From assembly GCF_056712565.1 (NCBI RefSeq), contig NZ_CM160072.1: 64,000 nt of DNA; one strand, given 5' to 3'. The notes below the pieces were generated by a model. That model was given only the letters and a program-made list of their open reading frames with translations, was not told where the DNA came from and did not search any database. This document shows, in pieces, positions 27,218-27,890 of the stretch (position 1 is the stretch's first letter; each line of letters begins with the position of its first letter). Position numbers and translations under genes: made by a program.

Positions 27218-27890
27218 AATAGTTACCTTTTATGAGTATTTCACTGATGTTTAGAAAAATAGATAAATTTTTCTGTAGTAAAAAGAGAAGTAAACAAATG
27301 ACATGCATGTTTCTGTTGTAGTGATATCAACTCTACACGGTGATATTAAAGGGTAGGAAACACTCTAAAGTATCAAAAAAACGCTCATTTAAAATTATTT
27401 GCATGCAATTTAAAAGCATATCTTATTACTAATTGGAATTTGATGTTGCTATATTGAGGTCTATATTAATAATGCCTGTGAATGGTATTTTTGATGTATT
27501 TGATATGTTATCAATTTATATTATTTACAAACTAATTGTTTCAAATAATACATGGCTGATTATGCGGAAATAAATAATTTCCCACCGGAATTAAGTAGCA
27601 GCGGTGACAAGTATTTTCATCTACGTAACTATTCGGAATATTCAGAATATACTAGCGGTTTTTTTTTGAGTTTGATGATTTTTATCAAATCATGACTTTT
27701 TTCCTGAAAAGTCAGTAGATATTCATAGGCAAGTAAGGTTTTATACTTTGCTGACAGGATTCAGGCCTGTCTCAGACTGACATGGATGTAATGAACAAAA
27801 GGGAATGGCTATGGAAAATGAGCATCAATACAGTGGTGCCCGGTGTTCAGGGCAAGCCGCATATGTTGCTAAACGTCAGGAGTGCGCAAA

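Follow-up and report, generated by a model that had tools for sequence, protein, structure and literature searches.

The AT-rich spacer between yjiC and iraD of Escherichia coli: a known control region with a highly conserved core and an apparently mosaic origin

Introduction

Through IraD, the stability of RpoS is linked to DNA damage, to starvation and to the carbon status of the cell, and it is already established that these signals are integrated at the spacer separating iraD from the divergent gene yjiC. In Escherichia coli K-12 this 672-bp spacer, termed 'unusually large for E. coli' in the literature, is the closest described system to the locus discussed here (Merrikh 2009; Park 2017; Sass 2022). 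Its transcription start sites were mapped by Merrikh (2009, as cited in a later paper). Promoter P1 depends on sigma-70 and is induced in late log phase, by ppGpp and by AZT; promoter P2 is used by sigma-70 or sigma-S and is active in all growth phases. A recent preprint places the two starts at -417 and -137, reports that both are induced by AZT and by ppGpp, and describes a complex effect of SspA (Sass 2022). In RNA-seq data AZT induces ytiC 260-fold, ytiD 33-fold, idlP 18-fold, iraD 14-fold and yjiC 11-fold. The 280 nt between the starts hold two small open reading frames, ORF23 and ORF47, both translated, as judged by lacZ fusions, and both dispensable for iraD expression (Park 2017). Further downstream, the stop codon of the leader peptide gene idlP overlaps the iraD start, and CsrA represses idlP translation (Park et al., mBio 2017). 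When idlP is not translated, iraD expression falls; this indirect mechanism of CsrA action was presented as new by Park et al. in 2017.

Three broader families of regulatory DNA and RNA offer points of comparison. The promoter islands, stretches of H-NS-bound, horizontally acquired DNA, form the first, and the spacer is itself listed among them, as island '4554354_526 yjiC(-)/iraD(+)', one of 78 (Panyukov and Ozoline 2013). In that compilation it is scored as H-NS-bound in the ChIP data of Kahramanoglou (MG1655) and of Oshima (W3110), and it is associated with predicted foreign genes. Like other islands it is AT-rich, bound by H-NS in the two ChIP sets and polymorphic for presence or absence; unlike typical islands, which are described as transcriptionally almost silent, it has two well-used, regulated promoters. 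The classic case of stop/start coupling through an ATGA overlap, combined with a hairpin that covers the Shine-Dalgarno sequence, is a second parallel. The idlP/iraD overlap, the paired iraD Shine-Dalgarno sequence and the dependence on idlP are all shared with it, but at iraD CsrA exerts its control at the upstream reading frame, at least 58 nt from the iraD Shine-Dalgarno sequence. Finally, there is a likeness to small RNAs derived from 5' untranslated regions, or having a dual function, in that P1 drives a highly structured segment of about 280 nt with tiny reading frames. Unlike them, the P1 RNA has neither terminator nor Rfam family, and it continues into iraD.

The locus and its composition

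The window analysed here is a stretch of 64,000 nucleotides, in which the spacer and its neighbours lie as follows.

25473-26246, + strand: uxuR, neighbour of yjiC on the left
26387-27217, - strand: yjiC, DUF2686, YjfZ/YjiC family (open reading frame, RefSeq annotation, Pfam PF10887 with E=1.8e-165)
27218-27890, no strand: yjiC-iraD spacer, 673 bp, 32% GC, equivalent to the published 672-bp iraD upstream region
27891-28283, + strand: iraD, RssB anti-adaptor of the gp25/TssE-like fold family (NCBIfam NF010726 with E=1.3e-91, Pfam PF04965)
28276-29187, - strand: hypT, 3' neighbour of iraD, followed by iadA

The initial annotation of this DNA had singled out an unusually long AT-rich region of about 670 bp between the divergent genes, and this description is borne out: the interval runs exactly from 27218 to 27890, 673 bp at 32.2% GC, and its length agrees with the wording used for the K-12 spacer. 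The window as a whole is at 49.1% GC. When the 64 kb were scanned in segments of 673 bp, only 0.55% of the segments were equally AT-rich, and every one of them overlaps the yjiC-iraD locus. The composition is uneven, with 26.6% GC at 27218-27473, 29.6% at 27474-27753 and 48.2% at 27754-27890. The spacer is 99.9% identical to an MG1655 record and 100% identical to that of strain MCJCHV-1; a single additional A, within the run at 27375-27381 upstream of P1, accounts for 673 rather than 672 bp. A megablast search with positions 27100-28000 as the query matched 5,397 of 5,426 complete E. coli genomes, and in RefSeq the matched stretch carries ytiD, idlP, iraD and yjiC together with ytiC, the last entered as a 'hypothetical protein'.

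All this is familiar ground: the spacer is the well-studied, already annotated iraD control region, every published element of the K-12 region maps onto it base for base, and nothing functional differs from K-12. We hold it to be nearly certain that the interval is a composite control region of iraD, the gene of an anti-adaptor stabilising RpoS, set within AT-rich, H-NS-bound DNA.

Promoters and H-NS

The published starts, transferred to the window with the iraD ATG at 27891, fall on recognizable promoter elements.

27440-27445 and 27462-27467, + strand: P1 hexamers TTGATG and TATATT, separated by a 16-nt spacer (consensus scan)
27474, + strand: P1 start, published as -417 from the iraD ATG, 280 nt upstream of the P2 start
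27742-27747, + strand: P2 -10 hexamer TATACT, with the published start (-137) mapped to 27754

TATATT and TATACT each end 7 nt before the published starts (-417 and -137). P2 lacks a good -35 element. On these re-mapped coordinates, earlier work has RNA polymerase initiating at 27474 (P1) and at 27754 (P2), with transcription modulated by DnaA-ATP (in dispute, see below), by SspA and ppGpp, and possibly by HusR. Promoter-like hexamer pairs, however, are no commoner in the spacer than composition predicts (6, vs 4.3 +/- 2.2 in composition-preserving shuffles). The label of 'promoter island' thus seems to reflect AT content, with the proviso that the published call relied on a different algorithm from the density scan used here.

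It had also been proposed that the region could harbour a promoter silenced by H-NS. This agrees with work published earlier: two iraD promoters are mapped, the spacer is a listed H-NS-bound island, and inhibition of IraD expression by H-NS has been reported (Battesti et al. 2012, as cited in a later paper). Transcripts and several binding signals in the interval are documented in the literature, so the refuting outcome named in the initial annotation, an interval free of both, does not apply. H-NS reportedly occupies the AT-rich part of the spacer, where it would keep iraD expression down.

The high-affinity motif of H-NS is TCGATAAATT. A match at nine of its ten positions, TAGATAAATT, is found at 27260-27269, inside the palindrome AGAAAAATAGATAAATTTTTCT; such matches are not significant, as 10 occur in the window where 5.7 are expected, and the site was set aside.

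The leader

Downstream of P2 the spacer gives way to a leader of higher GC content, dense in sites that act at the level of RNA.

27811-27894, + strand: idlP (ORF27), encoding a leader peptide of 27 aa, its TGA stop codon overlapping the start of iraD (ATGA, 27891-27894)
27801-27805, + strand: idlP Shine-Dalgarno sequence GGGAA
27753-27815, + strand: CsrA sites on the leader RNA, GGA motifs BS1 to BS4
27757-27759, + strand: BS1, GGA in the loop of a hairpin at 27753-27771
27784-27786, + strand: BS2, GGA
27802-27804, + strand: BS3, GGA, coinciding with the idlP Shine-Dalgarno sequence
27813-27815, + strand: BS4, GGA
27879, + strand: a fifth GGA, not bound by CsrA, in the iraD Shine-Dalgarno sequence
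27874-27915, + strand: hairpin sequestering the iraD Shine-Dalgarno sequence (RNA folding, in agreement with the published structure)

The published CsrA footprints (-112 to -103, -90 to -84 and -78/-77) map exactly onto the window. In the predicted fold of the P2 leader, GGAGUG (27879-27884) pairs with CACUUC (27904-27909), leaving the AUG in the loop, and each Shine-Dalgarno base has a probability of at most 0.03 of being unpaired. Comparison of the two haplotypes described below shows what is kept in this region. The idlP start and the P2 -10 hexamer are retained in both, as are BS2, BS3 and BS4, but not BS1. The IdlP protein is identical in all six of the long-haplotype genomes compared, and the last 30 nt of idlP, which span the Shine-Dalgarno sequence and the ATGA junction, are identical in all five haplotype sequences.

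The mechanism is the one shown for K-12. Transcripts from P1 and P2 have in common a 137-nt leader, where CsrA binds the GGA sites around the idlP ribosome-binding site. With the iraD Shine-Dalgarno sequence locked in the hairpin, ribosomes that complete idlP open it and re-initiate, and this is the main route of iraD translation. Since CsrA blocks idlP, its repression of iraD is indirect.

Small reading frames on the P1 transcript

Between the two starts, the P1 transcript bears two small reading frames, translated yet dispensable.

27472-27573, + strand: ytiC, 33 aa as annotated (Pfam PF23685 'YtiC-like', E=4.9e-27)
27552-27695, + strand: ytiD (ORF47), 47 aa, annotated in RefSeq

ORF23 of Park et al. 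probably starts at the in-frame ATG at 27505, which gives 22 aa and a stop. The annotated start of the 33-aa YtiC (27472-27474) overlaps the mapped P1 start at 27474, and the automatic PGAP annotation gives the ytiC frame five different lengths.

Several observations suggest that ytiC and ytiD are weakly constrained, or unconstrained, as proteins, a point that this analysis adds to earlier work. In ST131 and in strain 1218KP a G-to-A change at 27554 both truncates ytiC and abolishes the ATG of ytiD. Differences in the N-terminal half of ytiD, compared across six diverse genomes of the long haplotype, number five nonsynonymous and one synonymous. It is on this stop gain and start loss, on the five-to-one ratio of changes and on the published absence of any effect on iraD that our reading of weak constraint is based.

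Long and short haplotypes

Not all E. coli strains have the long spacer. In about 491 genomes (around 9%) the match to the query does not begin until about 27627, and its identity is roughly 75%. CU532-9 is an example: here some 410 bp separate uxuR from iraD, and there is no yjiC; the gene is missing in four short-haplotype loci. A codon-degenerate search for the idlP/iraD junction, run on 100,044 species genomes (one per species), found the short arrangement also in E. coli E69, in Escherichia sp. E1V33 and in E. whittamii. Matches in this search came only from Escherichia, plus one contaminated 'Bacillus' contig, and phylogenetic footprinting is consequently limited to that genus.

The long and the short form are homologous precisely as far as the uxuR stop codon (26246), and again from about 27627; from about 27560 MAFFT alignment detects no more than weak similarity. 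In the long form some 1.4 kb of low-GC DNA stand in place of about 150 bp, and this segment carries yjiC, the adjoining 256 bp, P1, ytiC and the start of ytiD. What is common to both haplotypes is a segment of 264 bp (27627-27890), comprising P2, its upstream elements and the leader. No convincing direct repeats, such as transposition would leave, were seen flanking the yjiC segment. The uxuR terminators differ between the two haplotypes, which argues for a replacement and not a clean insertion. From these alignments we infer that the length of the spacer is that of a mosaic, with an ancestral core of 264 bp to which about 410 bp (27218-27626) would have been joined on arrival of yjiC. This mosaic origin is a further addition to the published account of the locus.

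A nearly invariant core

Three queries of equal size (266 bp) were compared with all E. coli genomes, counting those that reach at least 99% identity.

27359-27624, spacer to the left of the core: 1163 of 4897 genomes
27625-27890, P2/leader core: 4887 of 4902 genomes
27891-28156, opening 266 bp of iraD: 858 of 4903 genomes

The equal-sized flanks, therefore, reach this identity in only 17-24% of genomes. In an alignment of six diverse long-haplotype genomes 24 columns vary to the left of 27625, vs two (27625 and 27837) in 27625-27890. Judged on identity, the non-coding core is more conserved than the coding sequence of iraD, and this fits the density of overlapping signals that it accommodates. 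A recombination sweep, rather than selection, could be partly responsible for this conservation.

Together with the mosaic and with the small reading frames that look unconstrained, the conserved core could guide the choice of bases to mutate in a search for a LexA-independent damage regulator. To be sure, these three additions (mosaic, conservation of the core, weak constraint on the frames) leave the picture of how the locus functions unchanged.

Palindromes and candidate operators

The palindromes of the spacer had been noticed from the start, and they are both present and commoner than in shuffled DNA. A count of perfect inverted repeats (arms of 6 or longer, loop of at most 12) gives 14 hits at 9 distinct sites, compared with 4.4 +/- 2.6 in 500 dinucleotide shuffles, a fraction of 0.002 of which reach 14. 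With arms of at least 7 there are 5 vs 1.1 (0.016), and with arms of at least 8 there are 2 vs 0.34 (0.076). Palindromes are thus moderately commoner than composition predicts. The most conspicuous ones, and the sites that they meet, are these.

27253-27274: palindrome AGAAAAATAGATAAATTTTTCT, with arms of 8 bp, lying 36-57 bp before the start codon of yjiC
27630-27650: tandem TATTCGGAA/TATTCAGAA/TAT block, palindromic, with a conserved form reaching 27652
27643-27658: proposed HusR box CAGAATATACTAGCGG, overlapped by the preceding block
27675-27693: palindrome ATGATTTTTATCAAATCAT, 7-bp arms, centred at about -70 from the P2 start
27693-27714: palindrome TGACTTTTTTCCTGAAAAGTCA, 8-bp arms and a 6-nt spacer, -61 to -40 from the P2 start, directly after the ytiD stop

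The example given in the initial annotation, GACTTTTTTCCTGAAAAGTC, lies at 27694-27713, and one further pair extends it to TGACTTTTTTCCTGAAAAGTCA. The nearly invariant core includes both palindromes (27675-27714), which span -79 to -40 relative to the P2 start; most probably they serve P2 as protein-binding elements or else form hairpins in the P1 RNA, and they are not a small RNA gene. The nearly invariant 130 bp or so just upstream of P2 (27625-27753) thus carry the TATTCNGAA repeat and these two adjacent palindromes, built of TGAYTTTT/AAAAGTCA units.

In the short haplotype the place and the inverted symmetry of the palindromes are kept in part, but not base for base. TGACTTTTTTCCTGAAAAGTCA is invariant within the long haplotype, and three of the four short-haplotype sequences carry CTTTTTA-AA-TAAAAAG in its place, CU532-9 having a weaker version. 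The inner TGAT-TTTT-ATCA of 27675-27693 becomes TGAC-TTTT-GTCA in three of four, a compensatory change, and in E. coli E69 the pair is mismatched (TGAC...ATCA). Neither palindrome keeps its outer arms in the short haplotype. Both haplotypes retain the TATTCNGAA block (27630-27652), even the short one, where the reading frame of ytiD is interrupted; the constraint thus bears on DNA or RNA and not on protein.

Among known factors, FNR or CRP came to mind for ATGATTTTTATCAA (27675-27688), which fits the consensus TTGATNNNNATCAA (TTGAT-N4-ATCAA) at nine of ten specified positions and is centred at -72.5 from P2. Matches of this quality are at chance level in the window (4 found, 3.9 expected), and the site is kept as no more than a lead. 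HusR gave a gSELEX-chip peak at the spacer in vitro, and its box was derived with MEME; no in vivo effect on iraD has been reported. The TGACTTTTTTCCTGAAAAGTCA palindrome does not make a better HusR box than the published site, the similarity being weak (about 10 of 16 positions). Several targets of HusR coincide with promoter islands, a hint of a possible bias toward AT-rich DNA.

Alternative explanations

That the palindromes at 27675-27714 act, with the TATTCNGAA block, as operators on P2, for a regulator of the CRP/FNR family, for HusR or another of LysR type, or for a LexA-independent damage regulator, is a somewhat doubtful proposal. In its favour, the candidates occupy -124 to -40 relative to the P2 start, where about 4900 genomes show essentially no variation. 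Persistence of the block where the ytiD frame is broken, an inverted repeat that survives in three of four short-haplotype sequences, the nine-of-ten fit of ATGATTTTTATCAA and a HusR peak that falls here all speak in the same direction. Yet the FNR-like match is what chance would provide, the outer arms are lost in the short haplotype, and HusR has no demonstrable role in iraD regulation in vivo. Palindromes of A-tracts and T-tracts, moreover, arise easily in AT-rich DNA. More specifically, the 130 bp upstream of P2 might be the site of a LexA-independent replication-stress regulator, or else a processing or termination module converting some of the P1 output into a separate ytiC-ytiD RNA, a conjecture that we consider unlikely. 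The role of the invariant palindromes is, in any event, a routine question of promoter dissection.

A quite different reading would see the left 410 bp or so as inert AT-rich filler brought along with yjiC and coated by H-NS, palindromes and small reading frames being by-products of composition. The GC content of 27-30%, the absence of the segment from some 9% of E. coli genomes as well as from other Escherichia species, and a variability equal to or above that of the coding flanks would all be expected of such DNA. So would the fate of the reading frames (the ytiC stop gain and ytiD start loss of ST131 and 1218KP, the five-to-one changes in the N-terminal half of ytiD, the lack of effect of ORF23 and ORF47 on iraD). 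Against this, the segment contains P1, from which iraD is mainly transcribed in late log phase and following AZT, yjiC, with its 11-fold induction by AZT, must likewise draw its expression from here, and both frames are translated, with a Pfam family existing for YtiC. We find this reading, too, rather improbable. The other suggestion made at the outset was that of an unannotated small RNA, for example a structured RNA of some 200-240 nt extending from P1 to the hairpins at 27671-27714. In its favour, the RNA between P1 and P2 (27474-27760) folds at -71.8 kcal/mol, vs -52.7 +/- 4.5 in shuffles (z = -4.2, none of 200 as good), two adjacent 9-bp hairpins stand just 3' of a run of nine U, and the decrease of AZT induction from 260-fold (ytiC) to 33-fold (ytiD) and 14-fold (iraD) could mean that many P1 transcripts end early. 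A basal signal from P2 downstream explains this gradient more simply, however, and the hairpins are AT-rich and have no U-tract after them. No intrinsic terminator was found on either strand of 27000-28100. A covariance-model search with Rfam over 26000-29500, accepting E-values up to 10, gave hits at chance level only, all of them far sub-threshold noise (eukaryotic snoRNA, lncRNA, CRISPR repeats); the best score in the interval is 24 bits, for a gathering score of 50. The P1 RNA is moreover translated in ytiC and ytiD, and it reads through, as fusions started at P1 and T7 constructs express idlP and iraD. The features of the spacer are already annotated, its three reading frames being in RefSeq, and no report of a small RNA was found in the literature under the old names yjiC/yjiD. 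An independent small RNA is in our view very improbable, and the composite control region of iraD remains by far the preferred account. As for a conserved RNA structure at the palindromes, too little speaks for it to make the claim: the consensus that RNAalifold returns across haplotypes is weak, at -8.5 kcal/mol, and includes a single compensatory pair, in a segment that is invariant within the long haplotype.

The proposed DnaA box

Control of iraD by DnaA is disputed. ChIP-seq of DnaA gave no signal at iraD; mutation of the proposed box raises expression, and the EMSA that accompanies this result used the whole 672-bp fragment (Sass 2022 preprint). On the window the box falls at a crowded place.

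27810-27818, - strand: proposed DnaA box TTTTCCATA, at -81, overlapping the idlP start codon and BS4

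Small reading frames in the yjiC-iraD spacer

The spacer between the divergent genes yjiC and iraD measures 673 bp in the window, not the published 672 bp, because the homopolymer at 27375-27381 is A7; this run is shared by strain MCJCHV-1, and A6 is found in a K-12 MG1655 record and in five other genomes. When coordinates are mapped on the window, the annotated ytiC start codon (ATG 27472-27474) overlaps the published transcription start of the iraD promoter P1 (-417 from the iraD ATG, that is 27474). The lengths that PGAP gives to this ORF vary by genome (33, 22, 32, 27 or 38 aa). 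Either ytiC is leaderless, or its true product is the 22-aa ORF beginning at ATG 27505, which is probably the 'ORF23' of Park et al.

ytiC product: 33 aa as annotated (Pfam PF23685)
ytiC ORF in compared loci: L002 1905-1973, also L009-L013 (length comparison)

A single G-to-A change at 27554, present in the ST131 isolate and in strain 1218KP, converts a Trp codon of ytiC to a stop and the ATG of ytiD to ATA. Across six genomes, the N-terminal half of ytiD carries five nonsynonymous differences versus one synonymous, and its C-terminal half is encoded by DNA without any variation. This pattern speaks against selection acting on the proteins of these two ORFs.

HusR sites and neighbouring promoters

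Comparison of published tables places four of the nine HusR (YnfL) gSELEX sites (ypaB, yjbI, yqeH and idlP-iraD) within or beside H-NS-bound promoter islands; the in vitro selection could thus have a preference for DNA that is AT-rich or curved, rather than for a specific box. Beyond the spacer, divergent intragenic promoters, with short sense and antisense RNAs, are reported at the extreme 3' end of uxuR, adjoining yjiC (PMC10016265).

27643-27658: proposed HusR (YnfL) site at idlP-iraD (gSELEX, literature table)
about 26100-26246: uxuR 3' end with reported intragenic promoters (PMC10016265)

IraD and variation of the locus

A match to PF04965 (E=9.4e-14) places IraD (27891-28283) in the phage baseplate gp25 / T6SS TssE fold family; the score of IraD against TIGR03357 falls below the cutoff of that model. 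Such a fold in an RssB anti-adaptor is a known curiosity. In the window iraD and hypT overlap tail to tail by 8 bp (28276-28283); in the short haplotype, a PEP-binding protein pseudogene fragment lies between them (L003 3695-4066).

In the ST131 isolate (L010 1-281) yjiC is annotated as frameshifted, a further hint that cells can do without the yjiC segment. In E. coli OkiPb01688 a shortened yjiC adjoins an IS1 element (L004 2287-4208), and the entire yjiC-iraD spacer is absent, as are iraD and the genes that follow it up to roughly yjiK, a loss that looks like an IS1-mediated deletion. Finally, a 605-bp contig of 'Bacillus coahuilensis' m4-4 (NZ_ABFU01000118.1) matches the idlP-iraD part of the window (27763-28367) at 99.8% identity, and is almost certainly E. 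coli contamination of that assembly.
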